From: Myxococcota bacterium
Lineage (GTDB): Bacteria > Myxococcota_A > UBA9160 > UBA6930
NCBI GenBank assembly: GCA_965223705.1
Contig: OZ245015.1
Location: forward strand, 1,152,001-1,216,000
Direction: 5' to 3'
Length of the DNA stretch: 64,000 bases
Of this stretch, positions 5,180 to 40,527 are shown in pieces. The translations under genes and the position numbers were made by a program. The notes beneath the pieces were generated by a model. The model was not told the DNA's origin. It worked only from the letters and a program-made list of their open reading frames with translations, and ran no database searches. Position 1 is the stretch's first letter; each line of letters begins with the position of its first letter.

Positions 5180-6291
5180 AAGCCCTGGTGACCGGAGGCG
5201 CCGGTTTCGTCGGCTCCCATTTGGTGGACGCTCTCATTCGCGAGGGCCACGACGTGCGGGTGCTCGATAATCTCGATCCCCAGGTTCATGGGGAAGCGCG
5301 TCGCCCGCCGGACTACCTCCACCCGCAAGCGGAGCTCCAAGTCGGAGACGTGCGCGATCGAGACGCCGTGTCGCGCGCCATGGCGGACGTCGATGCGGTT
5401 TTTCACCAGGCGGCCGCCGTCGGCGTCGGTCAGTCGATGTACGAAATCGAGCGCTACGTCTCGGTGAACAGTGTCGGCGCCGCCGTTGTTCTCGAAGAGG
5501 CGGTGGCACGCCGCGACCAGCTCCGCCGCCTGGTCGTCGCTTCATCGATGTCGATCTACGGCGAAGGGGCCTATCGCGACGCGAGCGGGCGAGATGCTTT
5601 TCCCGGTCTGCGCAGTGAGGCGGACCTCGCCCGTCGCGAGTTCGAGTGCCGTGGGGAGGATGGTCGGAACCTGATCCCGGTTCCCACCAAGGAAACCAAG
5701 CCGCTCAAGCCGACCTCCATTTACGCGGTGACGAAGCGAGATCACGAGGAGATGTTCCTCTCCGTGGGCGCCGCGTACGGGATTCCGACCGTCGCGCTTC
5801 GCTACTTCAACATCTACGGGACGCGCCAGTCCCTCTCGAATCCCTACACCGGCGTGATGGCGATCTTTTCGTCGCGACTTCTCAACGGGAATCCTCCGAT
5901 CATTTTCGAAGATGGCCGCCAGACGCGAGATTTCGTCCACGTTTCGGACATTGTTCGCGCGAACGTGTTGGCGCTCACAAGCGAACGCGCCGTGGGGGGC
6001 GTGTACAACATCGGAACGGGGAAGCCGACTTCGGTATCGCAGATTGCCTCGGTGCTCGCAGAGAAGCTCGGCGTCGCTGCGCCCGCGGACGTCACCGCGC
6101 AATTTCGCGCCGGAGACATCCGGCACTGCTACGCGGATATCGATCGCGCCCGCGCCGATTTGGGCTACGCGCCGGAGGTGAGTCTCGAAGCCGGCATGGA
6201 GGAGCTTCTCGATTGGCTGCGCGGCCAGCAGCCCGATGACCGCGTCGCGGAAGCCGCGGACGAGTTGCAGAAGAGGGGGCTCACGCGGTGA
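5176..6291 (+). CDS. NAD-dependent nucleotide-sugar epimerase/dehydratase (extended SDR)
   Basis: TGGAGFVG, YAVTK (YxxxK), RYFNIYG, RDFVHV and GDIRHC motifs. Confidence 0.92.
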   Translation: MKALVTGGAGFVGSHLVDALIREGHDVRVLDNLDPQVHGEARRPPDYLHPQAELQVGDVRDRDAVSRAMADVDAVFHQAAAVGVGQSMYEIERYVSVNSVGAAVVLEEAVARRDQLRRLVVASSMSIYGEGAYRDASGRDAFPGLRSEADLARREFECRGEDGRNLIPVPTKETKPLKPTSIYAVTKRDHEEMFLSVGAAYGIPTVALRYFNIYGTRQSLSNPYTGVMAIFSSRLLNGNPPIIFEDGRQTRDFVHVSDIVRANVLALTSERAVGGVYNIGTGKPTSVSQIASVLAEKLGVAAPADVTAQFRAGDIRHCYADIDRARADLGYAPEVSLEAGMEELLDWLRGQQPDDRVAEAADELQKRGLTR

Positions 6292-6326
6292 AGCCGCGCC
6301 GTGTCGAACGAGGGTCTACCCGCTGA
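6288..6326 (+). other. 12-codon coupling mini-ORF MKPRRVERGSTR
   Basis: GTG overlaps the epimerase TGA; its TGA overlaps the ATG at 6326; degenerate 35-nt duplication of the junction. Confidence 0.45.
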
Positions 6327-7342
6327 TGCCGCGACTCGACTCGCGCCGGTTGGAGCGCCTGGTCCGTCGTTTTGAGGGATTGCGACTCCTGGTCGTCGGC
6401 GACGTGATGGTCGACGAATATCTCTGGGGCGACGTCGACCGCGTCAATCCCGAAGCGCCGGTGCCCGTGGTCCTCGTGACCCGAGAATCGACGGCGCTCG
6501 GCGGTGCGGGCAACGTCCTTCGCAACGCCGCCGCCTTGGGTGTCACGTGTTCGCTCTGTTCGGTCGTCGGTGAAGACGCCGCGGGAGACCGGGTCATCGA
6601 TCTACTGAAGGACCTGGGAGTCGATCCCAGCGCGGTGGTACGCGTGCCGGGCCGACCGACGACGCAGAAGACCCGCGTCGAGGCGCGCTCGCAACAGATG
6701 CTTCGCTTCGACCGCGAGACGGAAGATCCGATTCCGCGCGCGGTCGCCGCGCGACTCACCGATGCGATCGAAGCGCTGCTCCCGAAGACCGACGGCGTCA
6801 TCTTGGAGGACTACGGGAAGGGGCTCCTCACACAGGGTTTCGTCAAGGGTCTCCTGCGGCGCGCCATCGATTCCGACGTTCCGGTGACCGTCGATCCGAA
6901 GTTCGAGATCGCGATGTACCGGGGCGCGAGCCTCGTGAAACCAAACGTTCGAGAGATCGAGGCGTTTCTCGGGACGAAGATTCGCTCCCGAGACGATCTG
7001 GTGTCCGCGGGCAACCGGGTGCGGAAGAAGCTCGGCGGAAGTCCTCTGGTGGTGACGCGCGGTGCCGATGGCATGAGTGTGTTCGACGAGGGTGACGACG
7101 CTGTCGACGTGCCCGTCGCGCGCCGGAAGGTGTTCGACGTGCAGGGCGCCGGCGACACGTCGATCGTCGCTCTGACCCTCGCGAGACTCGCCGGAGCGAG
7201 TCTCGTCGAGGCTGCGATCATCGCGAACGCCGCTGCCGCCGTGGTCGTCGCCAAGGTGGGAACGGCGACGGCGACGGCCGACGAAATCGCGGCGCTGCTC
7301 CCGGATGCGGTGGCCGCGGCCAGGCGAGCGGGGCGCGCGTGA
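6326..7342 (+). CDS. rfaE1: D-glycero-D-manno-heptose-7-phosphate kinase (HldE/RfaE domain I, stand-alone)
   Basis: VVGDVMVDEY, VNPEAPVPV, GGAGNV, DYGKG and DVQGAGDT motifs; no adenylyltransferase domain. Confidence 0.9.
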   Translation: MPRLDSRRLERLVRRFEGLRLLVVGDVMVDEYLWGDVDRVNPEAPVPVVLVTRESTALGGAGNVLRNAAALGVTCSLCSVVGEDAAGDRVIDLLKDLGVDPSAVVRVPGRPTTQKTRVEARSQQMLRFDRETEDPIPRAVAARLTDAIEALLPKTDGVILEDYGKGLLTQGFVKGLLRRAIDSDVPVTVDPKFEIAMYRGASLVKPNVREIEAFLGTKIRSRDDLVSAGNRVRKKLGGSPLVVTRGADGMSVFDEGDDAVDVPVARRKVFDVQGAGDTSIVALTLARLAGASLVEAAIIANAAAAVVVAKVGTATATADEIAALLPDAVAAARRAGRA

Positions 7343-8223
7343 TCCGGAGCATGACCGGTTTCGGGCGCGCCACGGTTTCCGTCGGGGAGCAAGCCCTCCA
7401 AATCGAGATTCGGACGCTGAACCACCGCCACGCCGACGTGGGGGTCAGGCTCCCTCGAATTCTCCAGTCGCTCGATCACGAGCTGCGCGCAGAAGCGAAA
7501 CGCACGTTCGGTCGCGGCAAGATCGACATCAGCGCGAACCTCGTTTCCGAAGCGGCGCCGGGCGCCGTCCTGTCCATCGACACCGCCGCGGTTGCGCAGT
7601 ACGTCGAGGCAGCCGCGTCGTTCGCGGCGGACCACGGCGCCGACGGCGAGCTTCGGTCCGCCGAGCTCTTGGCGTTGCCGGGCGTGGCGAGACTCGTCGA
7701 AGGTGCGTTGCCCGAAACCGAAGCCGAGGAAGCGCTGAGGGCCGGTTTTCGCGAGGCGGCCGCGGCTGTGCAGGCGATGCGCGAGCGGGAGGGCGCGGGT
7801 CTCTACGAAGAGCTCACGTCACAGCTCGTCCGCGTTCGCGAACTGTGCGCCGCACTCGAGGCGCGTGCGGGTGACGTGGCACAGCTTGTCCGTGAAAGGC
7901 TTCGCAAGCGCGCCGAAGGGCTGCGCGACGAAACCGGCATTCTCGACGAAGCGAGACTTCATCAGGAAGTCGTGTTGGCCGCGGATCGCATGGACATCCG
8001 CGAAGAGCTCGTACGTCTCGGCAGCCATATCGATCAGTTTCGGTCGACCATCGACGGCGAGGGAGAACCGGTGGGTCGGCGGCTCGATTTTCTACTGCAA
8101 GAAATGGGACGTGAAGCGAACACGATCGGATCCAAAGCGGGCGACGCACCGCTCGCGCATCTGGTCGTCGACCTGAAGACCGAGCTCGAACGGATCCGCG
8201 AGCAGGTCCAGAACGTGGAGTAG
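7339..8223 (+). CDS. yicC: YicC/YloC family endoribonuclease
   Basis: MIRSMTGFG, RGKID, GRRLDFLLQEMGREANTIGSK and REQVQNVE motifs. Confidence 0.95.
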   Translation: MIRSMTGFGRATVSVGEQALQIEIRTLNHRHADVGVRLPRILQSLDHELRAEAKRTFGRGKIDISANLVSEAAPGAVLSIDTAAVAQYVEAAASFAADHGADGELRSAELLALPGVARLVEGALPETEAEEALRAGFREAAAAVQAMREREGAGLYEELTSQLVRVRELCAALEARAGDVAQLVRERLRKRAEGLRDETGILDEARLHQEVVLAADRMDIREELVRLGSHIDQFRSTIDGEGEPVGRRLDFLLQEMGREANTIGSKAGDAPLAHLVVDLKTELERIREQVQNVE

Positions 8224-8226
8224 CGC

Positions 8227-8517
8227 GTGGCCGCTTCCGAAACTCCGCGTGCGCCGGCCGTCCTCCGCATGCTCAACATCGGTTACGGAAACCTGGTCGC
8301 TGCAGAGCGGGTGGTGGCTATTGTCTCCCCGAACTCTTCGCCGATGAAACGCCTCCGCGAAGAGGCGGCCAACGCGGGGCGCTTGCTCGATGCGACCCAA
8401 GGCCGCCGTACGCGTTCGATCTTGGTGACCGACAGCCACCACATCATCCTTTCGGCGATCAACCCCGAGACCATTCAAGCGCGTCTCTCGAGTGATGCTG
8501 AGGAGGCGGGCCGGTGA
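8227..8517 (+). CDS. remA: DUF370/RemA family protein
   Basis: [17 protein letters not shown] and [11 protein letters not shown] motifs; yicC-remA-gmk synteny; alternative start ATG 8269. Confidence 0.88.
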
Positions 8518-9131
8518 CCGGGCGCACCGGGATTCCGTTTGTGGTGTCAGCACCGTCCGGGACCGGGAAGACCACCGTATGCCGCGCCGTGGTCCGCGGG
8601 GATCCCCAGCTCGAGTTCTCCGTTTCTCACACCACGCGAGCTCCCCGGGCAGGTGAGACCGACGGTGTCGACTACCACTTCGTTTCGACCCGAAAATTTC
8701 GCCAGTTGATCGAAGCCGACGCCTTCGTCGAATGGGCGGAGTACGCGGCGCAGCTCTACGGAACGAGCTGGAAGTCGATCGATGGTCCGTTGCAAGAAGG
8801 GCGCGACCTCCTCCTCGAAATCGAGGTGCAGGGTGCGGCGCAGATTCGAGCCCGGCGAGACGATGCCCGCCTGATCTTTCTCCTGCCGCCGTCGGCGGAA
8901 GAGCTCGAACGACGACTTCGCGGGCGGGGAACCGACGCACCCGACGTGATCGAACGTCGTCTGGCGCTCATCCAGCGCGAGTTCGAGGCGCGTCACGGAT
9001 TCGACTACGCGGTGATCAACGACGACCTCGACGAGTGCGTTCGCTCCGTCGAATCGATTGTCGCCGCCGAGCGCGCCGGGGACGTGTCCGCGGTCCGTGA
9101 GCGCTTTGCGGTGCCGAGAAATCTCGCATAA
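8514..9131 (+). CDS. gmk: Guanylate kinase
   Basis: [29 protein letters not shown] and FLLPPS motifs. Confidence 0.96.
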
Positions 9132-9197
9132 TCGCATTTCGACTTCCCACGGGCCCTCAGCTATTTTTAGAGGGACGAAAAGTCGATAAGAATCAAG

Positions 9198-11375
9198 ATG
9201 TTGCGCTTCAACGACATCGCTGACCGCGTGCTCGAGCACGACCCGGAAGCAGATCTCCACCTGCTTCAGCGCGCGTACGTCTACACGGCGAAGGTGCACG
9301 AAGGGCAGGAGCGTCTCTCGGGCGAGCCCTATTTAGTCCATCCCCTTGAAGTCGCCGGCATCCTTGCGGACATGCGGATGGACGCCGTGACCATCGCCGC
9401 CGGTCTGCTGCACGACACGGTGGAAGACACCCACAGCACCGTCGAGGAGATCACGTCGCTCTTCGGAGACGAAGTGGGGTTTGTGGTCGAAGGGCTCACC
9501 AAGATCGCCAAGATCGAGTTCAAGTCGGCGCGCGAACGGCAAGCCGAGAATTTCCGCAAGATGTTGATCGCGATGTCGAAGGACATCCGCATCCTCCTCA
9601 TCAAACTCGCGGACCGCCTTCACAACATGCGGACCCTCGATTACATGGAGGAAGATTCCCGTCGGCGGATCGCCCAAGAAACGCTCGATATCTACGTGCC
9701 CCTCGCGCACCGTTTGGGGATCTATTGGATGCGGCAAGAGCTCGAGGAGCTCGCGTTCCGCGCGCTCAAGCCCGATGCCGCGGCGGCGATCGAGCAGCGG
9801 TTGCGCGGCAGTCACAGCCAACGCGAGCGATACATCGAGGAAGTGATCGGCATTCTCACCGAGAAACTCGAAAAGGCGAACTTGCGCGCCGACATCACGG
9901 GCCGGCTCAAAGACCTCGCGTCGATCCACAACAAGATGGAAACCCAGGGAGTCACGCTCGACGAGATCTACGACGTGATCGCGTTCCGAATGGTGCTCGA
10001 AGCCGGGCCGGACGCGGTGTACGCAGCGCTCGGAATCGTCCACGCGACCTGGTCGCCTGTGCCCGGGCGCTTCAAAGACTACGTCGCGCTGCCACGGCAA
10101 AACGGTTACCAGTCGCTCCACACGACGGTCATCGGGCCCTACGGCGAGCGGATGGAGGTGCAGATTCGCACCCGCGAAATGCACCAGAACGCGGAGTTCG
10201 GAATCGCCGCGCATTGGCGTTACAAGCAGCGCGGAGTTCCCGTAAACCCCGAAGACCACGCGAAGTTCGCTTGGCTCCGCCAGCTCGTCGAGCGGCAGGG
10301 CGAGCTCTCCGATCCACACGAGTTTTTCGACACGCTGAAAGTCGACCTCTTCCCCGACGAGGTCTTCGTCTTCACACCCAAAGGCGACGTGATCAATCTG
10401 CCCCGCGGCGCGACAGCGCTCGATTTCGCGTACGGCATTCACTCCGAAGTGGGCGATCGGTGCACCGGGGCGCGTGTCAACGGGAAGATGGTGCCTCTCC
10501 GCCACCCGCTGCAAGACGGGGATACCGTCGAAGTCGATACCCGGAACAACCAGACGCCTCGAAAAGACTGGCTCGAGTTCGTCGTGTCTGGCAAGGCGCG
10601 GAGCCGGATTCGCCACGCGATCCGAGCGGAGGAGAACGAGCGCAGCCGAGAGCTGGGACGCGCCATTCTCGAACGTGAACTGCGGCGCGTCGGGTTGTCT
10701 CTCGCGCGTGTCGAAGAACGCGGAGAGCTCGCCGACTTCGCGAAGAAGCACGCCAGCGGTTCGGTCGACGATTTGTTCGCCGCAGTTGGCTACGGGCGCG
10801 TGCCGGCCGTCAAGATCGCCCGGGCGTTGCGACCCGATTTGGAAGAGGAAGCGCCGCGGCAAGAGCCCAAGCCCGAGCCTGAGCGCCCGCGACGGCTCCC
10901 GCAGTTGTTCCGCCGCCGCGAACGCCGCACCGCGGGCACCGGCATCCGGGTCCAGGGCCAAGAAGGCGTGCTCGTGCGGTACGGCCGTTGCTGCACGCCG
11001 CTTCCCGGGGACGACATCGTCGGGTTCGTGACGCGGGGACGCGGTGTGACGATCCACCAAAAAGATTGTCGCGTGGTGTTCGAACTCGACCCCGAGAGAA
11101 GAATCGACGCGGAATGGGACACGGAGACGGCCGCCCCGAGGAAGATCCGCGTCCGAGTCACGTCCCGCGATGAGCCGGGACTCCTCGCGAAGGTGACGAA
11201 GACGATCTCTTCCGCCGGCATCAACATCGGCGCCGCCCGCATCGCAACCCACGCCGATCGCACGGCGACGCAGAACTTCGAGCTCTGGGTGACGGACCTC
11301 ACTTCTCTCACGTCGGTGATGAAGCAAATCGAGCGCATCAAGGGCATCGTTTCGGTGGAACGGGTGCGGACGTGA
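9198..11375 (+). CDS. relA: Bifunctional (p)ppGpp synthetase/hydrolase (long RSH)
   Basis: RLSGEPY, LLHDTVED, KLADRLHNMRT, RFKDY, YQSLHT; TGS, CC and ACT domains. Confidence 0.96.
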   Translation: MLRFNDIADRVLEHDPEADLHLLQRAYVYTAKVHEGQERLSGEPYLVHPLEVAGILADMRMDAVTIAAGLLHDTVEDTHSTVEEITSLFGDEVGFVVEGLTKIAKIEFKSARERQAENFRKMLIAMSKDIRILLIKLADRLHNMRTLDYMEEDSRRRIAQETLDIYVPLAHRLGIYWMRQELEELAFRALKPDAAAAIEQRLRGSHSQRERYIEEVIGILTEKLEKANLRADITGRLKDLASIHNKMETQGVTLDEIYDVIAFRMVLEAGPDAVYAALGIVHATWSPVPGRFKDYVALPRQNGYQSLHTTVIGPYGERMEVQIRTREMHQNAEFGIAAHWRYKQRGVPVNPEDHAKFAWLRQLVERQGELSDPHEFFDTLKVDLFPDEVFVFTPKGDVINLPRGATALDFAYGIHSEVGDRCTGARVNGKMVPLRHPLQDGDTVEVDTRNNQTPRKDWLEFVVSGKARSRIRHAIRAEENERSRELGRAILERELRRVGLSLARVEERGELADFAKKHASGSVDDLFAAVGYGRVPAVKIARALRPDLEEEAPRQEPKPEPERPRRLPQLFRRRERRTAGTGIRVQGQEGVLVRYGRCCTPLPGDDIVGFVTRGRGVTIHQKDCRVVFELDPERRIDAEWDTETAAPRKIRVRVTSRDEPGLLAKVTKTISSAGINIGAARIATHADRTATQNFELWVTDLTSLTSVMKQIERIKGIVSVERVRT

Positions 11376-11386
11376 GCCGCAGATGA
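11372..11386 (+). other. 4-codon coupling mini-ORF MSRR
   Basis: GTGAGC...ATGAGC; starts on the rel TGA and stops on the ATG of the next gene. Confidence 0.4.
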
Positions 11387-12162
11387 GCGTACCCATCACG
11401 GCCTGCACGATGGCGCATCGCGAGAAGAGGCTCTTGCAGCGCGCGTTAGCTTCCCTCGAATGGGCAGACGAAGTGGTGGCGGTGATCGATCCGACCGGTG
11501 ATCCCGAAACCGAAGCCATCGCGCGGGCGAGCGGCGCGCGCGTCGTGATGCACGCGTACCCGGGCGATATCGAGCAGAAGCGCTTTACCGTAGGCCAAGC
11601 GACCAACGATTGGGTGCTCTACATCGACGCGGACGAAGAAGTGACGGAAGAATTGGCCGAGGAGATCCGCGAGTTTCTGAAGGGGGTCGACGACGACGTC
11701 GCGGGTTGTGAGATCTCACGCCTGACATGGCATCTCGGGCGCTGGATACTTCACGGCGATTTCAATCCCGATCGCTTGGTTCGCTGTTTTCGCAAGAGCC
11801 GCACGCGGGTCGAAGGCACGAATCCACACGGCCGTTTCGTCGTCGATGGACGCGTCGAGTCGTTCGCCGAGGTGATCGCGCACTACAGCTACCGCGACCT
11901 CGCGGATCAGGTCGAGCGGATCCAGTCTTTTAGCGAGATCTCCCATCGCGCGTTGCTCGCCGAGGGAAGGTCGGCGCGGCTGTCGGACATCGTGGTGCGC
12001 CCGTTCGCGCGTTTCTTGCGCGGTTACGTCTTGAAACAGGGTTTTCGCGACGGGTTGCCCGGATTCATGATCGCTGCGTCGAGCGCGTTCCACGTGTTTC
12101 TCAAGTACGCAAAGCTTTGGGAAGCGCGCCTGCCGGAGATTCACCGAGCGCCCCCTCTGTGA
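11383..12162 (+). CDS. GT2 beta-1,4-glucosyltransferase-like (WaaE/KdtX type)
   Basis: SLEWADEVV, NDWVLYIDADE, HYSY, GFRDGLPG and FLKYAKLWE motifs. Confidence 0.88.
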   Translation: MSVPITACTMAHREKRLLQRALASLEWADEVVAVIDPTGDPETEAIARASGARVVMHAYPGDIEQKRFTVGQATNDWVLYIDADEEVTEELAEEIREFLKGVDDDVAGCEISRLTWHLGRWILHGDFNPDRLVRCFRKSRTRVEGTNPHGRFVVDGRVESFAEVIAHYSYRDLADQVERIQSFSEISHRALLAEGRSARLSDIVVRPFARFLRGYVLKQGFRDGLPGFMIAASSAFHVFLKYAKLWEARLPEIHRAPPL

Positions 12163-12173
12163 ATCCCCGATGA
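12159..12173 (+). other. 4-codon coupling mini-ORF MNPR
   Basis: GTGAAT...ATGAAC; starts on the GT2 TGA and stops on the GT4 ATG. Confidence 0.4.
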
Positions 12174-13309
12174 ACATCCTCCAGCTGACCAGCGATTGGA
12201 AGTGGACCGGGCCGGCGGAGCCGATGGTGCGTCTCGCGCGCGGGCTCAAGGAAGCGGGACACCGCGTGTGGGTCGCCGCCCCCGAACCACCGGAGCCCGT
12301 CAAGCGATCCCTCGCGGAAGAGACGGCGCGCGCGGGTTTCCCTCTCTCCTTGACGATCGACTACGCGCACGGCACCCGACCGCTTCGCGACCGACGCGAC
12401 ATCGGACGCTTGCGGGAGTTCGTCGCCCGGCGCGATATCGAGCTCGTCCAGACCTGGCACACGCGGGACCACATGCTCGCCTGGCGCGCGCTCGGATTGC
12501 GCGCGACGCGGCGAAGGGCCGCCTTGGTGCGTTGGTACAAAACCGCCGAGGCGATCTCTCACCGCCTGCACAATCGTGTGTTGTACGGAGCCGGGTGCGA
12601 TGGGTTGCTGTGCGTCTCTCCGAAAATCGCGGAGCGCAACCGCGGTTTGTGTCACGGGCCGGTCGCGGGCGTTTTCGGCGCGGTCGACACTGAGGTGTTT
12701 GCCCCCGCGCCGAAAAATCCGCAAGTCTTGAGCTCGCTCGGTTTGTCTCCGGAGCACCGCGTCGTCGGCATCGTCGCGCGCGGGCAACGCAAGCGGCGTT
12801 TCCCTTTGCTCCTCGAGGCGGCGAAGCGATTGTTCGAGCGTGACCCCGACGCACGTCTGCTGATCATCGGACGCGGCACGCACCGTCGAGAAGTCGCGGA
12901 GGAGCCCGCGCGCGAGCTCGGGATCGCGGATCGTGTGGTGTTTGCCGGCTATCGCGTCGACGACTACCTCGACGTCGTGCGGTGCATCGACGTCTTCACG
13001 TTTTTGGTCCCGGGAAGCGACGGGACGTGTCGCGCGCTGCTCGAAGCCCTCTCGCTGGGTATGCCCGCGGTGACGACGCGCCGTGGAGCGCTCCCCGAGA
13101 TTGTTCGACATGGCGTGACAGGCTACGCGGTCGGGGAAGATCCCGACGCGCTGGCCGGCCACTGGCAGGAGCTCCTCGCGGATCCGGCGCGGCGTGCGCG
13201 GTTTGGAGAGGCGGCGCGGGACGATGCCCTGCGGCGCTTTGGCATCCCCCGATTTGCCGAGGAGGTCGGAGCGTTCTACGGCCGCGTTCTTGCGAGCCGC
13301 CGCTCCTAG
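12170..13309 (+). CDS. GT4 family glycosyltransferase
   Basis: VDTEVF, VVFAGYR and LLEALSLGMPAVTTRRGALPEIV motifs. Confidence 0.9.
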   Translation: MNILQLTSDWKWTGPAEPMVRLARGLKEAGHRVWVAAPEPPEPVKRSLAEETARAGFPLSLTIDYAHGTRPLRDRRDIGRLREFVARRDIELVQTWHTRDHMLAWRALGLRATRRRAALVRWYKTAEAISHRLHNRVLYGAGCDGLLCVSPKIAERNRGLCHGPVAGVFGAVDTEVFAPAPKNPQVLSSLGLSPEHRVVGIVARGQRKRRFPLLLEAAKRLFERDPDARLLIIGRGTHRREVAEEPARELGIADRVVFAGYRVDDYLDVVRCIDVFTFLVPGSDGTCRALLEALSLGMPAVTTRRGALPEIVRHGVTGYAVGEDPDALAGHWQELLADPARRARFGEAARDDALRRFGIPRFAEEVGAFYGRVLASRRS

Positions 13310-15180
13310 CGATCCCCCTGCAGCGCGACCAGTTCGCGGTAGAGCCCTTCGCGTGCGACGAGCTCTTCGTGCTTGCCCATCGCCAGGACGCGACCGTGAT
13401 CGAGGACGAGAATCTTGTCGGCGTTCCGGATCGTCGACAGCCGATGCGCGATCACGAACACCGTGCGCCCCGACAACATGCCCTCGATCGCTTCCTGGAC
13501 GAGGCGTTCGCTCTTCGCGTCGAGAGCGCTCGTCGCCTCGTCAAAAATGAGGAGCGCCGGGTTCTTCACGATGGCACGCGCGATCGTGACGCGCTGCCGC
13601 TGTCCCCCCGACAGTGCGCCACCGGCCTCACCCACCGGCGTATCGAGCCCTTCGGGCAAACGATCCGCGAACTCCATGACGTGGGCCGCCTCGGCCGCGC
13701 GTTCGATCTCCGCGGGAGACGCGTCGGGACGGCCGTAGCGGATATTGTCGCGGATGGTCCCCTCGAGGAGCAGTGGTTCTTGGGTGACGACGGCGATGTG
13801 CTCCATGAGCGAGCGCCGTGCCATGCCGCGAAGGTCGCGTCCGTCGAATTCGATCGAGCCGCCGTCGGGGTCGTAGAATCGGACCAAGAGGTCGGCGAGG
13901 GTGGTCTTTCCCGACCCTGTCCGGCCGACGATGGCGACGACTTCTCCGGCCCGGACTTCGAACGAGACGTCTTCGAGGACCGGCTCTCGGCCGTACCCGA
14001 AGTGAAGATTCTGGACGCGGATCCGGTCGTTGAGAGAAAAGGGTGTCGCATCGGCGGTGTCAGCGGTTTCGGCGGGTTTATCGAGAAGCTCGAAGAAACG
14101 GTCGGCGGCCGGCAAGGCATCCATGAAGCCGTTCCACCCACGGGTCAGGTCCTTCACCGGCCGATAGACGCTCGCCATCACGCCGACAAATGCGATCAAG
14201 GAGCCCGGTGTGAGACCCCACGCGCCGCGATAGACGAGCCAACCGCCGAGCAGCAGGACCCCGACGCCGACGACATTGTTGACGCCTTCGACGACCGTGC
14301 GCGAGAGAGCGCGGTTGAGGACGACTTTCATGCTGCGGCGAAACAGTCGCCGATTGTGCTTCGCAAAGGAGTCCGATTCGATCCGTTCCGCACCGAACGC
14401 CTTGATGACCTTCATGCTCGACAGGATCTCGACGAGTCGCTGGGTGACGTCGCCGAAACTCTCTTGGCGCTTCATGGCGTCGCGCCGAATGCGACGCCCG
14501 AAAAACGCGATCGCGCCGGCGATGACCGGCGCGGTCAAAAGAACGAGCAGTGTGAGCTGCCACGAGATCGCAAAAAGGAGAACGCCGCCGGTCAGCAGGG
14601 ACAACGCGCCGAGCAGGACATCCCCGAACAGCATTTCGAGGGCCAAGTGCGCCCGCGTCGCGTCGTTCGTCGCCCGGGACAGGAGCTCGCCGCGCGTGGT
14701 GCTCTTGTGTGAGCGCAGGGGCAGGCACAAGAGCTTCTCGCAGAGGCCCTGCTGCATGTCGACGAGAACGCGTCCCAGGACGTAACGGATGAGATAGCTC
14801 TGGCCGAAGTGCGCCAGCGGGACGAGCATGACCACAAAGAGGAGCGCGCCCGCCGCGTGCTGGAAATTCTCGGCGACCCGAGCGTCGAAAGCCTCCGGCG
14901 TCGCAGGACCTTCGGGCTCGGCAACGTCCGCCTCGGTCTCTATTCCGGGAACCCAGTCGAGCCAGCCCAACCGAGCGGGGATCTCACGTTCACCGCTACC
15001 CAGCTGGATGCCGATGCCGTCCATGATGGGTTTCATCAGATAGGCACGGCCGGCGCGCGCGCCGGCGTACGCAACCGCACAGAGCACGGTGATGAGGAGC
15101 AGCCCGACGTAGGGCCGAACGTACCGTGACAACCGGAGGCCTGTGGCGAGCTTTTCGTTCGTCGGCTGCGAAGATCCCAT
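13306..15180 (-). CDS. msbA: MsbA-like ABC exporter (lipid A flippase)
   Basis: TM domain plus GRTGSGKTT, LSGGQRQR, DEATSALD and IAHRLST; LPS cluster. Confidence 0.8.
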   Translation of the reverse strand: MGSSQPTNEKLATGLRLSRYVRPYVGLLLITVLCAVAYAGARAGRAYLMKPIMDGIGIQLGSGEREIPARLGWLDWVPGIETEADVAEPEGPATPEAFDARVAENFQHAAGALLFVVMLVPLAHFGQSYLIRYVLGRVLVDMQQGLCEKLLCLPLRSHKSTTRGELLSRATNDATRAHLALEMLFGDVLLGALSLLTGGVLLFAISWQLTLLVLLTAPVIAGAIAFFGRRIRRDAMKRQESFGDVTQRLVEILSSMKVIKAFGAERIESDSFAKHNRRLFRRSMKVVLNRALSRTVVEGVNNVVGVGVLLLGGWLVYRGAWGLTPGSLIAFVGVMASVYRPVKDLTRGWNGFMDALPAADRFFELLDKPAETADTADATPFSLNDRIRVQNLHFGYGREPVLEDVSFEVRAGEVVAIVGRTGSGKTTLADLLVRFYDPDGGSIEFDGRDLRGMARRSLMEHIAVVTQEPLLLEGTIRDNIRYGRPDASPAEIERAAEAAHVMEFADRLPEGLDTPVGEAGGALSGGQRQRVTIARAIVKNPALLIFDEATSALDAKSERLVQEAIEGMLSGRTVFVIAHRLSTIRNADKILVLDHGRVLAMGKHEELVAREGLYRELVALQGDR

Positions 15181-15216
15181 CCGGTTTGAGCTTAGCCGCC
15201 GGTCGAGGGAGAGCGA

Positions 15217-17672: not shown

Positions 17673-17756
17673 GGTTGACCCGTGATACTCGAGGTCCCCG
17701 AGGGCTGTCAAACGCGATCTCCGAGGCCCCGCATGGCGCGCGCTACACTGCACCGG

Positions 17757-22119: not shown

Positions 22120-22215
22120 TCACCTCGACCCCCCGTGAGGACGATCGCCGTTTGGGCTCCGGACGCCCGGGCGGGCGGATGACCTCGCCCGTCGGCGAAC
22201 GCCAGGGGGGTGCTC

Positions 22216-25860: not shown

Positions 25861-25907
25861 CCGGCTCGGCGCGAGGCGCCGCCAGCCCAAGCTGTTAAGT
25901 TCCGGCC

Positions 25908-27133
25908 ATGGAACCTTCGGCCGGATTCGCAACCGAGTTCATACAGTGGGCGCGCGACAACGCTTCGTTGTTGGTCGGCCTCGCGGCGGTGTTGCCCTCT
26001 GCGTTCACCGCTCTCGCGATGCTCCTCGGGCGATCACCCGAGGTTGCGCCGGAAGCGCCGGAACCGGCGCCGCTGCCCGCGCCCGAGGCACCTTCACCCG
26101 CGCCGGAACCCGTAGAGGCGGACGAAGCCGAGCCGCTAGAGGCGGAGGAAGCCGAGCCGCTAGAGGCGGAGGAAGCCGAGCCGCCGCGAGCCGCTAGAGC
26201 CGGAGGAAGCCTCCCGCGATTCCCGAGGCGGTCCCACTGCGCGAACGGCTCGCGCGGACCCGCGAAGCGCTCGTCGGTCGGATCGGCTCGTTGCTGTCGG
26301 GAAAGACACTCGATGGCGACGTTCTCGAGGAGCTCGAAGCCACCTTGTTCGGAGCCGATCTCGGCGTTCGGACCGCAGACGATCTGTTGCAAACGGTTCG
26401 ACGAGAAGCCGCGGGCGGCGACGCCGAGGCCGTGCGGAACGCGCTTCGCGCGACGCTCCTCGATCGGCTCTCGCGCGTGGAGCCTTCGACCGATCCCCTG
26501 GCGCTTCAAGGCAAGCCCCACGTCGTTCTGGTGCTCGGAGTCAACGGGTCGGGCAAGACGACGACGATCGGAAAGCTCGCCGCGCGTTACCGAAGCGCCG
26601 GCCGCAGCGTCATCCTCGGAGCGGGCGACACGTTCCGCGCGGCCGCGGCGCAGCAGCTCGAAGTTTGGGGAGAGCGCGCCGGCTGCGAGGTCGTCGTGGG
26701 GCCCGAAGGCGGTGACCCTGCGGCGGTCGCTTTCGACACGGTGAAAGCGGCGAACGCGCGCGGGATCGACGTGGCCTTGATCGACACAGCCGGCCGGCTC
26801 CAGACCAAGGCGCCGCTCATGGAAGAGCTCGGCAAGATCGCGCGCATCCTCGGTCGCGACGTCGAAGGCGCGCCGCACGAAACCCTGCTGGTGCTCGATT
26901 CGAACACCGGGCAGAACGCTCTGCAGCAGGCGGAACTGTTCACGGAAGTCACTCCGGTCACCGGCATCGTTCTCACGAAACTCGACGGCACGGCGAAGGG
27001 CGGCGTGATCGTCGGTCTGGCCGACGCGTTCGGTATCCCCGTGAAACACGTCGGGGTTGGAGAAGGCGTCGAGGATCTTCGAGACTTTCGCGCGGAAGAG
27101 TTCGTCGACGCGCTTTTCGACTCCGGGGCTTGA
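25908..27133 (+). CDS. ftsY: SRP receptor FtsY (apparent frameshift(s) near 26185-26212)
   Basis: NG domain GVNGSGKTTT, DTFRAAA, DTAGR and TKLDGTAKGG in one frame; TM plus acidic Pro/Glu N-region in another frame. Confidence 0.92.
26113..26211 (+). repeat. 24-nt coding tandem repeat (EAEEAEPL) in the ftsY acidic domain
   Basis: tagaggcggaggaagccgagccgc repeated about 4 times, last copies irregular. Confidence 0.8.
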
Positions 27134-28626
27134 CCGTGTCGCGCTTTGTTCTCGCTCTCGACCAGGGCACCACTTCATCCCGCGCGATTCTTTTCGACCG
27201 GGACGGTCAACCCGCTGCCGTGGCGCAAGCGGAGTTCCGCCAGTACTTCCCCAAACCGGGTTGGGTCGAGCACGATCCCGAGGAGATCTACGCGACACAG
27301 GTCGACGCCGCGAAGCAGGTGCTCGCGAAGGCCGGCGTCACGACGCGCGACGTGCGCGCCATCGGGATCACGAATCAGCGCGAGACCACCGTGGTGTGGG
27401 AGCGCGCGAGCGGACGTCCGATCTATCCGGCGATCGTCTGGCAATCCCGGCAGACCGCACCGCTCTGTCAAGAGCTTCGCGATCGCGGGCTCGCCGAGGA
27501 CGTGCGAAACCGCACCGGGCTCGTGATCGACGCGTACTTCTCCGCGACGAAGATCCGCTTCATTCTCGATCGCGTGGAGGGGGCGGCGGAACGCGCACGG
27601 CGCGGAGAACTCGCTTTTGGAACGATCGACAGTTGGCTCATCTACCGGCTGACCGAAGGCGCGGTGCACGCCACCGAAGGGTCGAACGCCTCGCGCACGA
27701 TGATCTACAACATCCGCGAAAACGATTGGGACCCGGTCCTGCTCGACGCGATCGACGTCCCGCGCGAAATCCTGCCCGAGGTGCGGGACTCGAGCGGCGA
27801 TTTCGGCGAGACCGGCGTGCTGGGAGGTCCGCTGCCCATCGCCGGCGTCGCGGGGGACCAGCAAGCCGCGCTCTTCGGTCAGGGATGTTTTGCGCCCGGA
27901 AGCGCGAAGAACACCTACGGCACGGGTTGCTTCTTCCTTTCGCAAACCGGCGAGCGCGCGCCGCACTCGGAGAACGGCCTGGTCACGACCATCGCCTGGT
28001 GTTTGGAGGGTCGCGTCTCGTACGCTCTCGAAGGCAGCGTGTTTGTCGCTGGGGCTGCGATCCAGTGGTTGCGCGATGAGCTCGGGATCCTCGAGAGCGC
28101 GGCGGAGAGCGAGACCCTCGCCCGCTCCGTGCCCGACACCGGGGGCGTCGTGCTCGTACCGGCGTTCGCGGGGCTCGGTGCGCCCCATTGGGATGAGACC
28201 GCCCGGGGCCTTCTGATCGGATTGACCCGCGGGACAAGCCGAGCGCACATCGTCCGCGCGGCACTCGAGTCCCTGGCCTACCAGTCGCGTGACATGATTC
28301 GTTGCGCGGAGTCCGATTCCGGAGAATCGGTTGCGAGCCTGCGCGTGGACGGTGGCGCGTGCGAGAATGACTTCTTGATGCAGTTTCAGGCGGATATCTT
28401 GGGTGTGCCCGTCGAGCGACCGAGGAACCTCGAGGTGACTGCGTTCGGCGCCGCCGCCCTCGCCGGGCTGGCGACGGGTTTCTATTCGGACCGGAATGCA
28501 CTCACGGAGACGGCGCGGGCCGGGGCTCGGACCTTCGACCCGTCGCTTCCCGAGAGCGAGCGTTCTGCACTCGTCGAACGCTGGGGCCGGGCCGTCGAGC
28601 GTGCGCGGGGCTGGGAAACGCTGTGA
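27130..28626 (+). CDS. glpK: Glycerol kinase
   Basis: DQGTTSSR, GITNQRET, GDQQAALFGQ, KNTYGTG and LRVDGG motifs. Confidence 0.97.
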   Translation: MTVSRFVLALDQGTTSSRAILFDRDGQPAAVAQAEFRQYFPKPGWVEHDPEEIYATQVDAAKQVLAKAGVTTRDVRAIGITNQRETTVVWERASGRPIYPAIVWQSRQTAPLCQELRDRGLAEDVRNRTGLVIDAYFSATKIRFILDRVEGAAERARRGELAFGTIDSWLIYRLTEGAVHATEGSNASRTMIYNIRENDWDPVLLDAIDVPREILPEVRDSSGDFGETGVLGGPLPIAGVAGDQQAALFGQGCFAPGSAKNTYGTGCFFLSQTGERAPHSENGLVTTIAWCLEGRVSYALEGSVFVAGAAIQWLRDELGILESAAESETLARSVPDTGGVVLVPAFAGLGAPHWDETARGLLIGLTRGTSRAHIVRAALESLAYQSRDMIRCAESDSGESVASLRVDGGACENDFLMQFQADILGVPVERPRNLEVTAFGAAALAGLATGFYSDRNALTETARAGARTFDPSLPESERSALVERWGRAVERARGWETL

Positions 28627-28739
28627 TCGTCATTCCCGCAAGCGGTAGGACCAGCCTGTGATCGTCATTCCCGCAAGCGGTAGGGCCAGCCTGTGATCGT
28701 CATTCCCGCAAGCGGTAGGACCAGCCTGTGATCGTCATT
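28621..28739 (+). repeat. 35-bp tandem repeat x3.4, each unit a translationally coupled 12-codon mini-ORF
   Basis: ctgtgatcgtcattcccgcaagcggtagg(a/g)ccagc at 28621, 28656 and 28691, partial at 28726. Confidence 0.95.
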
Positions 28740-29426
28740 GCGCACCGGGGTTCTTCCGCCGATTACCCGGAAAACTCCATGGCGGCGTTCGAAGCCGCGA
28801 TCGGCGATGGCGCGGACATGATCGAGACCGATCTGCACCTGACCCGAGACGGGGAGATCGTGCTGGTTCACGATCCCGAGCTCGCGGGGCACGGGGACGT
28901 CGGACAGCGGAGCCTCGCGGAACTGCGACAGCTCGACATGGGCGACGGCGAGAGCATGCCCACTCTGGGAGAAGCGCTCGATCGCTTCGGCGGCCGCATC
29001 TCGTGGAACCTGGAGATCAAGCGAGGCGTGCGTGGGCGCTATCCCGGGCTCCCGTCCGGAGCGCTCCGGGAAGTCCGCGATCGAGGCCTCCTCGATCAGA
29101 CGCTCTTCTCGTCGTTCGATCCCGAGACCCTGGCCGAGCTGCGCTCGCTCGCGGTCCGTGCGCGGATCGGCGTCCTCCAGGGGAAGCTGCCGATCGATCC
29201 GGTTTCGAAGGCGATGTCGCTACAGGCCGAGGCCGTACATCCCGAGCGGGCCCTGGTGACTCCGGAGCTCATTGAGGTCTGTCACGCGCGCAAGCTGCAG
29301 GTCTACCCCTACACCGTGGACGAGCCGGCGGACATGGAGCGTTTTCGCGCCTGGGGAGTCGACGGGCTGTTCACGAACGTCCCGGCCCAGCTGCGTGCGC
29401 TCCTCGCCGGGGCGGCGAGCGGCTAA
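28728..29426 (+). CDS. Glycerophosphodiester phosphodiesterase
   Basis: IAHRG, PENS, ETD, VHD, NLEIK, SSF, YTVD and GVDGLFTN motifs. Confidence 0.93.
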   Translation: MIVIAHRGSSADYPENSMAAFEAAIGDGADMIETDLHLTRDGEIVLVHDPELAGHGDVGQRSLAELRQLDMGDGESMPTLGEALDRFGGRISWNLEIKRGVRGRYPGLPSGALREVRDRGLLDQTLFSSFDPETLAELRSLAVRARIGVLQGKLPIDPVSKAMSLQAEAVHPERALVTPELIEVCHARKLQVYPYTVDEPADMERFRAWGVDGLFTNVPAQLRALLAGAASG

Positions 29427-29446
29427 CGGCCGCAGCCTGCTTCTGC

Positions 29447-29475
29447 TTGACACGAAATTGCGGATCGTTTAGCCT
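29447..29475 (+). promoter_or_regulatory. Sigma70-type promoter of gltBD
   Basis: TTGACA-N17-TAGCCT. Confidence 0.6.
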
Positions 29476-29605
29476 CGATTTTCCGAAAACGCTAAGACTC
29501 TCGCATAGTTGCGTGTTTGTGGCGCACGGATAGGAGAGCCCTCGCGTTCGCCTCAGCCACCGCCATCGCGCCGGCTAGGCGTCTCAGACAGTTTGAGGTC
29601 ATTGC

Positions 29606-32600
29606 ATGCCGCTCCCCCAGCGACACCATCTGCCCCAAAAGCAGGGTTTATACGATCCCTGTGCCGAGCACGATGCATGCGGGGTGGGGTTCGTCGCGCA
29701 CCTCCACGGCGAAAAATCGCACACAGTCATCCGCAAGGGCGTCGAGGTTCTGCTGAACCTCGAACACCGGGGCGCGTGCGGCTGCGATCCCGAGACGGGT
29801 GACGGCGCGGGCGTGTTGATCCAGATCCCCGACGCGTTCATGCGCGAATGGGCAGCGGGCGAAGGCACGGAGCTTCCCGAAGAGGGTCGCTACGCCATGG
29901 GGATGGTCTTTCTGGATCCCGATGCCGAGATCGGCCAACGCCAACGCGAGCTCTTCGAAGAAACGGTCGCCAACGAGGGCCAGCGCGTGATCGGTTGGCG
30001 CGAGGTTCCGCACGATCCGGAAGCGATCGGTCGCGTTGCGCGCGAAGGGCTCCCCGACATTCGCCAGATCTTCATTGCGGCGGAGGGGCCCGCTGCCACG
30101 GATCGCGATCACTTTGAACGCAAGCTCTACGTGATCCGGCGCCGGATTGAACGCGCGGTCGCCGACGATTCGTTCTTCTACGTACCGAGTCTCTCGAGTC
30201 GCACGCTCGCTTACGTCGGGATGCTGATCTCGCGCCAGATCGACGCGTTCTTCCCCGATCTGCTCGATCCTCGGATGGCGTCCGCGCTGGCGATCGTCCA
30301 TTCGCGCTACAGCACCAACACGATGCCCACCTGGTCGTTGGCGCACCCGTTCCGCTACTTGGCGCACAACGGCGAGATCAACACGATGCGGGGCAATCGC
30401 AACTGGATGCAGGCCCGTGAGGGCGTGATGCAGTCGGAGCTCTTTGGCGACGATCTCGCGAAGCTCTACCCGATCATGCGCGAGGGCGCGTCGGACTCGG
30501 CGCAACTCGACAACGCACTCGAGTTCTTGGTGCTGGCCGGTCGAGATCTCTCCGAGGCCGCCCTCATGATGATTCCCGAAGCTTGGGAAAATCAGCCGGA
30601 TATGGATCCGGATCTCCGGGCTTTCTACGAGTATCACTCGTTCATGATGGAACCCTGGGACGGCCCGGCGTCGATCGCGTTCACCGACGGCCGAAAAGTC
30701 GGCGCGGTACTCGACCGCAACGGTTTGCGGCCCTCGCGCTACGTCGTGACGAAAGACGGCTTGGTCGTGATGGCCTCCGAGGTCGGCGTGGTCGATGAGC
30801 CGGCTTCGAACATCGAGACGAAAGAGCGGCTACATCCCGGCAAGATCTTTTTGGTCGATCTCGAAGAAGGTCGAATCATCGAGGACGAGGAGATCAAGCG
30901 AGGCTACGTCGCTCGCCACCCCTACCGGCGTTGGGTGGAGGAGGGGCGGGTTCGCCTGGCGGAGCTCCCGGAGGCGCACGCGCCGGAGCCGATCGGCGAA
31001 GAAGCGCGTTTTCAGTTGCAGCAGGCCTTCGGGTATACGCTCGAAGATCGAAAGTTCCTGGTCGCTCCGATGGCGGCGAAGGGCAAGTGGCCGATCGGAT
31101 CCATGGGCGAGGACGCCGCTCTCGCGTGCCTCTCCGATCGTCCGCAGATGCTCTACCGCTATTTCAAACAGCTCTTTGCGCAGGTCACGAATCCCGCGAT
31201 GGACTCGATCAACGAGCGACCGGTCATGGCGCTCTTTTCACCGCTCACCACGGGGGCGAACCTTCTCGAGGAAGGCGCCGATCACGCGCGTGCGATTCGT
31301 ATCGAACACCCGGTGTTGACGGACGGTGAGCTCGCGAAGCTCGCGGCGATCGACCGTCCGGGGTTCCGCACTGAGGTGCTTCCGTGTCTGTTCAAGGTGG
31401 CCGACGCCGGAGACGGTTTGCGCGGCGCGCTGCGAGCACTGTGCGAGACCGCTGAGGCCGCGGTCGAAAGCGGCGCGAACATCCTCATTCTCTCCGACCG
31501 CGGCGTCGACCCCGATCACGCGCCGATTCCCATGCTTCTCGCGACGGGCGCCGTCCACCATCACCTCGTTCGGAAGGCGCTCCGCACGCGCTGCAATCTC
31601 GTCGTCGAAACGGGAGAGGCGCGCGAAGTCGCGCATATGGCGCTGCTGATCGGCTATGGCGCCGCGGCGATCAATCCATATCTCGCGTTCGCGACGATCG
31701 ACGAAATTCTCGAAGAGGGCGCGTTCGTTCCGAGCGACCTCGATCGCGAAACGGCGCACCAAAACTTCGTCCAAGCCTGTGACAAGGGGCTCCTCAAAAC
31801 CTTTGCGAAGATGGGGATTTCGACGCTTCAGAGCTACCTCGGCGCGCAGATCTTCGAGGCCGTCGGGATCGCTCCCGAGGTGATCGACGCGTGTTTTACC
31901 GGGACGGCCTCACGCGTGTCGGGCGTGGGCTACGACGTCATCGCCCGCGAGTCCGCTATGCGACACGAGCGCGCCTTCGAAGCGGAAGGCGCTTACCCCG
32001 AACTCGATCCGGGCGGCTTGTACCAGTGGCGAACGCGCGGCGAGAATCACACGTTCAATCCCGACGTCGTTTCCAAGCTTCAGATCGCTGTGCAGCGCGG
32101 GAGCTACGAGGACTACAAATCGTTCTCCGCTGCGGCCGACCGCGATTCCGAGAGCGCGTGCACGCTGCGCGGCTTGTTCCGCTTCCGCGAAGCCGAGTCG
32201 CCGATCCCTCTCGAAGAAATCGAGCCCGCGAGCGAGATCGTCAAGCGATTCTGCACCGGCGCCATGTCCTACGGCTCGATCTCTATCGAGGCTCACCAAT
32301 CGCTCGCGATCGCGATGAACCGGCTCGGGGGCAAGAGCAACACCGGAGAGGGCGGCGAAGACGAGAGCCGCTTCCAGGCCGACGAGAACGGAGACCTGCG
32401 TCGAAGCGCGATCAAGCAGGTCGCATCGGGCCGCTTCGGTGTCACGAGTTGGTATCTCGTGAACTCGGACGAGATGCAGATCAAGGTGGCGCAGGGGGCG
32501 AAGCCTGGAGAAGGCGGAGAGCTACCCGGTCACAAAGTGGACGAGACCATCGCGAAGACCCGCCACTCGACGCCGGGAGTCGGGCTGATCTCACCCCCGC

Positions 32601-34129
32601 CGCATCACGACATCTATTCCATCGAAGATCTCGCCCAGCTGATCTACGACTTGAAGAACGCAAACCGGCGCGCGCGCGTCAGTGTCAAGCTCGTTTCGGT
32701 GACCGGTGTCGGAACAATCGCCGCCGGTGTTTCGAAAGGGAAGGCCGACGGCGTCCTCATCAGCGGTATGGACGGCGGGACCGGAGCCTCGCCCCAAGCC
32801 TCGATCAAGTACGCGGGTATGCCGTGGGAGATCGGGCTCGCCGAGACACAGCAAACGCTGGTGTTGAACGACTTGCGCGGGCGTATTCGCGTACAAACCG
32901 ACGGCGGGCTCAAGACCGGGCGCGACGTGGCGATCGCCGCGCTCCTCGGCGCCGACGAATTCGGCTTCTCCACGGGGCCGCTCGTCGCGTTGGGCTGCAT
33001 TCTGATGCGCGTTTGTCACCTCAACACGTGTCCCGTCGGGATCGCGACGCAAGATCCGGAACTCCGCGCGCGTTTCGCGGGGAAGCCCGAGAGCGTCGTT
33101 CGCTACTTGCTTTGGATCGCCGAAGAGCTGCGCGAGTACATGGCGCTCCTCGGGTTCCGCACCGTCGACGAGATGGTCGGCCGTGTGGACCGCCTCGACG
33201 TCGCGGAAGCGGGCGCGCACTGGAAACGGCAAGGGCTCGACTTCTCGGGTCTGTTCCATCGGCCCGACGTGCCCCATGCCATTCGAAACACCGAGGGCCA
33301 AACCCTCGCCGAAGAGCTCGAAGAAGTGTTCGATGCGAAGCTCCTCGAGCTCGCGGAGCCCGCGCTCGCGCGGCGCGAGCGTGTCGAGATCGATCTGCCG
33401 ATTCGCAACGTCAACCGGACCGTAGGTACGATCCTCGGTTCCGAAATTTCCCGCGCGTACGGCCCCGAAGGTCTTCCCGAGGATACGATTCAGCTTCGTC
33501 TTCGCGGAAGCGCCGGACAAAGTCTCGCCGCTTTCTGCACGCGCGGAATGACCTTCACGATCGAGGGCGACACGAACGACTACTGTGGCAAAGGTCTGTG
33601 CGGTGCCAAGATCGTCGTCCGCGTCCCCGAGGAAGCGACCTTCGATCCGTCTCGCAACGTGATTACCGGAAACGTGGTGCTCTACGGAGCGACGAGCGGT
33701 GAGGCGTACTTTCAGGGGCTCGCCGGCGAGCGCTTCTGCGTTCGCAACAGTGGCGCCCAGGCCGTTGTCGAAGGGGTCGGCGATCACGGTTGCGAATACA
33801 TGACCGGCGGATTGGTGGTCGTCCTGGGCCGCACCGGGCGCAACTTCGCCGCCGGTATGAGCGGCGGCATCGCTTACGTGCTCGACGAAGACGGCGGTTT
33901 CCCGGATCGCGTCAATCCCGAGACGGTCGATCTCGATCCCATGGGAGAGTCGGATCTCGAAACCCTGCAACGGCTGGTTCGGCGACACTTCCAGTACACG
34001 CGAAGCCGCAAAGCCGACGAAGTCCTGCGGAAGTGGGACAGCTTGGCACCGAAGTTCGTGAAGGTCTTTCCGAAAGACTACAAGCGCGCCTTGGGCGACC
34101 GCATTCAAGCCGAGAGCGGAAATGGCTGA
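29606..34129 (+). CDS. gltB: Glutamate synthase large subunit
   Basis: [39 protein letters not shown] and GXGXG domain. Confidence 0.98.
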
Positions 34130-34166
34130 TCCGCGAGGTTGTCTCCACAATGGCTGATCCGCGAGG
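34121..34166 (+). repeat. 18-bp direct repeat of the gltB/gltD overlap, 28 nt apart; creates mini-[14 protein letters not shown] (34122-34157)
   Basis: aatggctgatccgcgagg at 34121 and 34149. Confidence 0.85.
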
Positions 34167-38275: not shown

Positions 38276-38326
38276 CCGCGAGATGCGATCGTCGCGGTAA
38301 CCCTGGTCACCAGCGCGTTTTTCGGG

Positions 38327-38355
38327 TTGACGGCACCTTGCCCGAATCGTACCTT
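38327..38355 (+). promoter_or_regulatory. rrn promoter
   Basis: TTGACG-N17-TACCTT about 300 nt upstream of 16S. Confidence 0.65.
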
Positions 38356-38489
38356 CCGCTTCCTGCCTCGGCGGGTGTAGACTCGCTGAACCATCTGCGA
38401 ATGCTGTTTACGCCCACGCTGTGCTCGATTCGCGCAGCGAAGAGGCAGCTCGCCCGAAGGGCCCGATACAGGCCCAGACGGCTACGGAC

Positions 38490-38510
38490 GGTCTTTGAAA
38501 ACCGAATAGC
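38490..38510 (+). promoter_or_regulatory. boxA-like antitermination/processing-stem element (second copy 40891-40911)
   Basis: ggtctttgaaaaccgaatagc and ggtctttgacaatcgaatagc; complementary segments near 40385 and 45178-45215. Confidence 0.6.
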
Positions 38511-38660: not shown

Positions 38661-40221
<1,561 letters not shown>

Positions 40222-40496: not shown

Positions 40497-40527
40497 GGAG
40501 TGTCATCGTGAGTTGGATGCTCGATGG

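Follow-up and report, generated by a model that had tools for sequence, protein, structure and literature searches.

The window analysed here, a 64,000-nt stretch of a Myxococcota genome (G000:C1:1152001-1216000), contains five gene junctions bridged by a short, closed open reading frame (ORF) that begins on the upstream gene's stop codon and ends on the start codon of the downstream gene. These mini-ORFs, termed relays below, had been described in a first-pass annotation; all are present on re-check, and they occupy 5 of the 30 co-oriented junctions called within the window. Writing each junction as upstream>downstream gene, the spacings are 35 nt at epimerase>kinase, 11 nt at rel>GT2, 11 nt at GT2>GT4, 3×35 nt at glpK>GDPD and 28 nt at gltB>gltD. 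Gene and start calls come from a self-trained gene model (4212 genes in the source genome, G000, which comprises 4.56 Mb in two contigs at 65% GC). Gene labels were checked with Pfam at E<=1e-8 and agree with it in the window except for GT2, the protein of which (11383-12162) has no Pfam match at this threshold and owes its label to the first-pass annotation only.

The first relay (6288..6326, on the plus strand, as are all those in the window) lies between genes for an NAD-dependent epimerase (5176-6291) and a PfkB-family kinase (6326-7342) and has 12 codons (VKPRRVERGSTR, 12 aa). It is a decayed 35-nt duplication of the junction, and its second junction still resembles, in degraded form, the 3' end of the ancestral epimerase gene. 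Relay peptides had been said to mimic the downstream N-terminus, but at this junction it is the C-terminus of the upstream gene product that the peptide resembles (RGSTR versus RGLTR before the stop). The downstream overlap is TGATG (-1) rather than the NTGA first reported, and the start codon of six of the seven mini-ORFs is GTG, not ATG; closure itself stands throughout. Two four-codon relays follow: VSRR (11372..11386), between rel/spoT (9198-11375) and the GT2-labelled gene (11383-12162), and VNPR (12159..12173), between GT2 and GT4 (12170-13309). At glpK>GDPD a 35-nt tandem array of 3.4 copies (97%; 28621..28739) separates the end of glpK (28626) from the start of GDPD (28728) and forms three chained relays of 12 codons (12 aa) each (28623-28661, 28658-28696 and 28693-28731). 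It is built of the 14-nt native junction, present four times, and a 21-nt spacer, present three times, for which no donor was found elsewhere in the G000 genome; the core of the spacer matches 22 times in the genome, mostly in unrelated coding sequence. Between gltB (29606-34129) and gltD (34150-35619) the 8-nt overlap ATGGCTGA is duplicated at a period of 28 nt (34121..34166), with an exact 18-nt copy at that period and an 11-codon (11-aa) relay at 34122-34157.

The claim that the junctions themselves are duplicated holds in part: a sequence repeat is clear only at glpK>GDPD, gltB>gltD and, in decayed form, epimerase>kinase, whereas at the two 11-nt junctions similarity amounts to just 4-5 bases. 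The gltB>gltD duplication is not an artefact of assembly: contigs from three of four public runs (two samples from one study, which may be the source sample) cross it with no gap. At glpK>GDPD the public-run contigs break at 28650/28721, as expected of a true repeat, so that the copy number given there is the assembly's own.

Reading frame and ancestry of relay junctions

The relay spacings had been noted to obey a frame rule for closure. G000 contains 2647 co-oriented gene pairs, of which 775 overlap directly. Non-overlapping co-oriented pairs with DTGA at both the upstream stop and the downstream start were counted among spacings in the closing frame (2 mod 3) and in the non-closing frame (1 mod 3); since the in-frame class was left out, the bias feared in the first-pass annotation is removed. 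Between 27 and 40 nt, the counts are 17/75 in the closing frame versus 4/82 in the non-closing frame (p=0.0017), compared with 18/186 versus 11/244 at 26 nt or less (p=0.05) and 12/197 versus 13/217 above 40 nt (p=1). Three relatives sampled over 2.0 Mb altogether (G014, G017 and G031) gave pooled counts of 8/28 versus 0/32 (27-40 nt, p=0.0012), 10/77 versus 2/71 (26 nt or less, p=0.03) and 10/93 versus 4/76 (above 40 nt, p=0.27). Pooled over G000 and these relatives the 27-40-nt bias has p=5e-6, a value that overstates the case because the relatives are not independent of each other. The rule is thereby borne out, and as a class the relays exceed chance expectation. In outgroups the 27-40-nt counts (1/8 versus 1/13) are too small for a test; in an unrelated high-GC control (400 kb of G049 plus 48 loci), those at 26 nt or less are 10/33 versus 2/33 (p=0.02), and the relay rule may be general in bacteria.

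The 17 closing junctions of 27-40 nt have a mean flank similarity of 11.1/24, against 6.55 in mismatched pairs (p=1.4e-4), which indicates that many are old duplications; 15 of the 17 are open from end to end. Multi-copy arrays chain as relays: besides the 3×35 array at glpK>GDPD there are arrays of 2×35, 2×32 and, in L165 and L293, 2×23 nt. Visible duplications whose length is not a multiple of three fall in the closing frame in all eight cases at overlapped junctions as the script defines that class (10 closing and 0 non-closing with two loci added by hand), compared with 8 closing and 8 non-closing at other stops (p=0.022 and 0.0095, respectively).

In most relatives the orthologous junction is a single overlap, and closed expansions that arose independently measure 11-89 nt; single overlaps and other lengths obeying the frame rule had both been predicted in the first-pass annotation. 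At gltB>gltD (30 loci from 41 genomes, 29 scoreable), 26 have a single 8-nt (-8) overlap and the three expanded junctions (+28 here, +55 and +37) are all closed at 1 mod 3. At epimerase>kinase (19 of 24 loci scoreable) there are 17 direct -1/-4 overlaps, one gap of 1 nt and one relay, that of G000; at the neighbouring kinase>yicC (22 of 24), 20 direct overlaps, one relay of 38 nt and one junction left unresolved by the script. The rel>GT2 junction (16 of 25 scoreable) is a direct -4 overlap in 12 loci, several with in-frame N-terminal extensions, abutting in one and a relay in three: +11 in G000, +35 in L157 and a chain of 2×23 nt in L165. GT2>GT4 (15 of 25) is direct in seven, a relay in three and gapped in the others, by 0-4 nt in four and by 61 nt in one. 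Both same-genus genomes (L152 and L153) have a closed GT2>GT4 relay of 38 nt, read by eye in translation, which is 27 nt longer than the 11-nt relay of G000 and identical to it in its first 8 bases. The 11-nt GT2>GT4 relay is therefore probably not due to chance; the earlier caveat that the 11-nt cases could be fortuitous still applies to rel>GT2 taken alone.

The glpK>GDPD junction (27 of 30 loci scoreable) is direct in 17 genomes and a relay in seven; three expanded spacers are not closed. By hand tally the non-closing frame occurs there in 0/27 genomes, against 8/27 at the adjoining and mostly uncoupled ftsY>glpK (p=0.004). Nine different lengths of the glpK>GDPD spacer, between 17 and 110 nt, occur within genus g2, and eight of them are 2 mod 3. 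Together with the genome-wide frame test and the visible duplications, these comparisons uphold the suggestion that selection keeps the frames that permit hand-over.

Two further features were noted at this junction in relatives. In genus g2 (L205-L221) a GTTCC-N-GGAAC inverted repeat directly precedes the GDPD start, with a hairpin fold in five of nine genomes; it could be a stem that occludes the ribosome-binding site (RBS) or an operator. In L208 and L213 the junction is filled with palindromic GC-rich repeat DNA, in frame 0 and frame 2, respectively, and a 99-nt array in G000 (C1:4047475) is similar to it.

Tandem duplications across the genome

Exact direct repeats in G000 show a sharp peak at periods of 32-36 nt, and a mismatch-tolerant scan found 87 loci with a period of 28-38 nt (19 per Mb). 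Counting only repeats that are not multiples of three, 35 fall on the eight such periods within 28-38, against seven on the 41 remaining ones between 8 and 80. Among the units listed, those of different loci are unrelated in sequence, and fresh units reproduce the ends of the two flanking genes base for base. Samples of relatives have period 28-38 densities of 27 per Mb in G014 (1.2 Mb), 27.5 per Mb in G017 (0.4 Mb) and 10 per Mb in G031 (0.4 Mb), of another family, where the signature is weak; unrelated controls gave 2.5 (G049, 0.4 Mb) and 2.4 per Mb (78 loci, 1.26 Mb). In G017 (L165, L278, L291 and L293) additional duplications of 23-26 nt occur, including two 2×23-nt relay chains, and the preferred length may differ between genera.

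The first-pass annotation had posited a process that duplicates junctions. Such a process exists, but it is not specific to junctions: 32 of the 87 loci lie inside genes (31 of these 32 with a length that is a multiple of three), 35 cover a stop codon, three cover a start only and 17 are intergenic. Per 100 kb of opportunity this corresponds to 28.7 stop-covering loci (a class inflated by frameshifts near gene ends), 3.1 start-only and 4.7 intergenic loci. The stop excess recurs in G014 and G017 (16 loci in 43 kb versus 9 in 184 kb); relative to convergent gaps in G000 (11.0 per 100 kb) it is not significant (35 versus 2 loci, p=0.22), and it may reflect either a targeting of stops or better survival of copies there.

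Thirty-two of the 87 arrays have an X-Y-X structure, in which the spacer is slightly more similar to its flanks than random (126 versus 109 matches, p=0.08), and 22 of the 23 spacers tested have no better match in the genome than shuffled sequences (mean 1.7 versus 2.0 mismatches); the simplest account would be decay followed by re-expansion. In 17 of the 55 full arrays the residual is 2 nt or less, the range being -2 to 32 nt.

A by-product of Cas1/CRISPR adaptation was rejected as a source, Cas1 being absent from five of five genomes (87-97% complete). So was an origin from repetitive extragenic palindromic (REP) or insertion sequence (IS) elements: no Y1/RAYT transposase was found in the genome, and a list of 82 isolated repeats, inspected by eye, contained no IS-like element flanked by target duplications of 24-45 nt. 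Loss of repair genes was set aside on domain presence (MutS-family and Pol I 5'-3' exonuclease domains in all five genomes), and templating by ribosome footprints because the stop codon position is uniform along the unit (26 arrays, Kolmogorov-Smirnov p=0.68). Ku was found in G000, G014, G017 and G031 and not in G001, G049 and G050; G031 is thus Ku-positive despite its weak signature. The sole reverse transcriptase match of G000 (C1:3636337-3636999) lies in a region with repeated sequences resembling tRNA ends.

Origin and retention of the relays

The frame bias, the duplication signature, the ancestral single overlaps and the frame-keeping changes in length are features of the genomes themselves, and we consider it probable that they reflect mutation combined with purifying selection to keep termination-reinitiation, the peptides being by-products. 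A mutational process of this bacterial family would make head-to-tail copies of arbitrary DNA, mostly of 32-36 nt; this step is established as a pattern, and our guess at its source is that staggered breaks are repaired by end-joining or by ligation of a flap. Once an overlapping stop/start junction has been copied in this way, the first copy would hold the upstream gene's end and the last copy the start of the downstream gene. If the copy is a multiple of three, the downstream protein would gain an N-terminal extension; if it is of closing length (2 mod 3 for -4 and -1 overlaps, 1 mod 3 for -8), a mini-ORF would run from overlap to overlap, on which a ribosome could terminate, reinitiate, read some 11 codons, terminate and reinitiate again. 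In the third frame a gap of 30 nt would open, coupling would be broken and the copy purged. Surviving copies would then decay in sequence and change in length mainly by multiples of three.

To judge from the sequence patterns, ribosomes probably translate the mini-ORFs, and the third frame would carry a fitness cost and be purged through uncoupling. Such a cost would follow from the loss of reinitiation across gaps: in E. coli, reinitiation falls steeply with distance and is 80-100% lost at 38 nt, and in both E. coli and Haloferax hardly any of it remains across gaps of 20-38 nt (PMC10666635). Copying of the junction would by itself cause relay peptides to mimic neighbouring termini, so that no peptide function is needed. 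On this evidence the relays are the signature of a mutational process, sifted by selection for coupling, and not a dedicated regulatory system.

Several observations weigh against this account. Short relays lack a relic of duplication (6.3/24), and of the short junctions with both motifs chance is expected to supply about one third (non-closing class, 15/326). Five gapped GT2>GT4 junctions have no relay, and at glpK>GDPD no ATG, GTG or TTG start closes 3 of the 10 expanded spacers (L213, with a premature stop, L214 and L218). Start codons rest on the self-trained model rather than curated annotation, and kinship among relatives inflates cross-genome p-values. Finally, a motif resembling a Shine-Dalgarno (SD) sequence precedes only 8/37 first (relay) starts, against 188/423 ordinary -4 overlaps (p=0.009), and 22/37 second starts, above the ordinary -4 overlaps (p=0.09); many downstream genes may therefore initiate independently.

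The same SD counts are what would be expected if a non-closing copy is harmful because it sends the reinitiated ribosome out of frame over the downstream start, while the downstream gene initiates de novo from the copied SD; the motif would be in the course of loss at first starts, and the closed mini-ORF would be tolerated and unused. Occlusion of a main RBS by upstream ribosomes is reported in Sinorhizobium (PMC13285730). We regard this as a doubtful alternative: 15/37 second starts have no SD-like motif, and closed relays survive repeated changes by multiples of three and do not disappear through mutations in the first start. Improbable, in our judgement, is the adaptive tuning of stoichiometry suggested in the first-pass annotation, in which selection would favour relays as valves, each hop lowering or modulating the translation of the downstream gene. 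Relays can indeed be long-lived, as at GT2>GT4 across a genus in which GT2 proteins are 56-57% identical and at glpK>GDPD in genus g2, and a relay ribosome could melt the g2 hairpin just upstream of the GDPD start. Most relatives nevertheless keep the single overlap, including at gltB/gltD, whose products form a complex; relay lengths, copy numbers and peptides are not conserved; and linkers and intergenic DNA carry duplications of the same kind.

That the inserts are mobile elements targeting DTGA overlaps is very unlikely and, for G000, largely refuted: although the X-Y-X arrays with spacers barely resembling their flanks and the palindromic DNA of L208 and L213 lend it some colour, each unit is unique, fresh units copy both flanking gene ends exactly, spacers find no better genome match than shuffles, and the Y1 transposase and the IS-like elements with 24-45-nt target duplications searched for above are missing. 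Chance or assembly artefact is refuted for the class and has almost no standing beyond the 11-nt rel>GT2 case: DTGA is common by itself (390/1314 starts in divergent pairs) and a nearby repeat in ftsY differs by 17 nt between the assembly and two runs, but the frame bias vanishes above 40 nt and is replicated in three genomes, in-gene copies stay in frame and contigs span gltB>gltD.

On the account favoured here, these genomes offer population-scale, reporter-free evidence on a debated point, namely whether native coupling needs a true overlap or scans across 30 nt: if scanning sufficed, frame would be irrelevant at these spacings. The account also predicts a class of small ORFs that are translated though their peptides are irrelevant; annotation and surveys of small proteins would overlook or misinterpret them. 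N-terminal extensions and short operon gaps would on this account be duplication scars. More surprising is the 32-36-nt generator with its stop-codon excess, a sharp signature common to the bacterial family that points to a repair or replication activity. A wider reading, possible and offered tentatively, is that an undescribed, sequence-independent form of DNA copying with a 32-36-nt ruler prefers translation stop sites and, once filtered by frame, writes disposable relay ORFs into operons, making this genome a natural experiment on selected multi-hop termination-reinitiation.

Described systems and further features

The relays invite comparison with mycobacterial interspersed repetitive units (MIRUs), reportedly described by Supply et al. 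in 1997. The mini-ORFs of the window likewise overlap both the upstream stop and the downstream start. A MIRU is a short insert at a start codon with an internal ORF coupled at -4 to the downstream gene, the expression of which is little disturbed (PMC12548453). The layout, for which the first-pass annotation knew of no description, is thus known for MIRUs and, according to the same source, for engineered two-cistron designs. MIRUs, however, form a dispersed and apparently mobile family, whereas each unit here is a different copy of its local junction and belongs to a genome-wide class of duplications also seen in linkers and intergenic DNA; there being no dispersed family of homologous units, the units here fail as MIRUs.

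Each hand-over in the window has the -4, -1 or -8 overlap of termination-reinitiation coupling (PMC10666635, PMC6728339), which is treated, in the relevant parts of the former, for single overlaps of two genes and not for chains via disposable mini-ORFs or their origin. Short ORFs also deliver a ribosome to the next start in bicistronic designs, the coupled upstream ORFs (uORFs) of Sinorhizobium (PMC13285730) and integron ORF-11 and attC short ORFs (PMC8876359); as described there, uORFs of the Sinorhizobium type use a separate RBS within a leader and overlap once, whereas a relay overlaps at each end and is a chimeric ORF made of the ends of its two neighbours.

The duplications, for their part, share one preferred unit length among unrelated sequences with constant-size, variable-sequence bacterial tandem repeats (PMC8161180; Subirana and Messeguer). 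Those repeats, in Bacillus, are of 20-21 and 52 nt, occur in families and have an origin left unexplained there; the period spectrum of G000 has no peak at 20-21 or 52 nt, and its units are of 32-36 nt, single-locus and low in copy number, stem from the sequence around them and are concentrated on stop codons. In eukaryotes, the small tandem duplications made by end-joining at staggered breaks (PMC8355091) are likewise short and have little microhomology, comparable to the small residuals of the full arrays; as far as that source goes, the enzymes are eukaryotic and the fixed size of 32-36 nt is left unexplained. Neither relays born by duplication nor a signature of about 33 nt turned up in a search of the openly licensed literature. 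To these precedents the locus adds genome-scale statistics with internal controls and a length-ruled duplication process.

Elsewhere in the window, ftsY (25908-27133) seems to be broken into two reading frames by a tandem repeat of 24 nt (26113-26211). Contigs of runs X1 and X2 are shorter there by 17 nt, which would unite both parts in one frame, and the split probably stems from faulty assembly or from an unstable variant of the repeat. A stretch of 5 kb without called genes (about 38300-43200) is lower in GC and rRNA-like by eye, with a 34-nt duplication at 40950. A large minus-strand ORF contains six 366-nt coding repeats (61118-63397), and its product is likely a surface protein. Outside the window, about ten similar palindromic repeats of some 130 nt lie 0.4-2 kb apart in G000 (C1:165700-175600), which we take to resemble integron attC sites.

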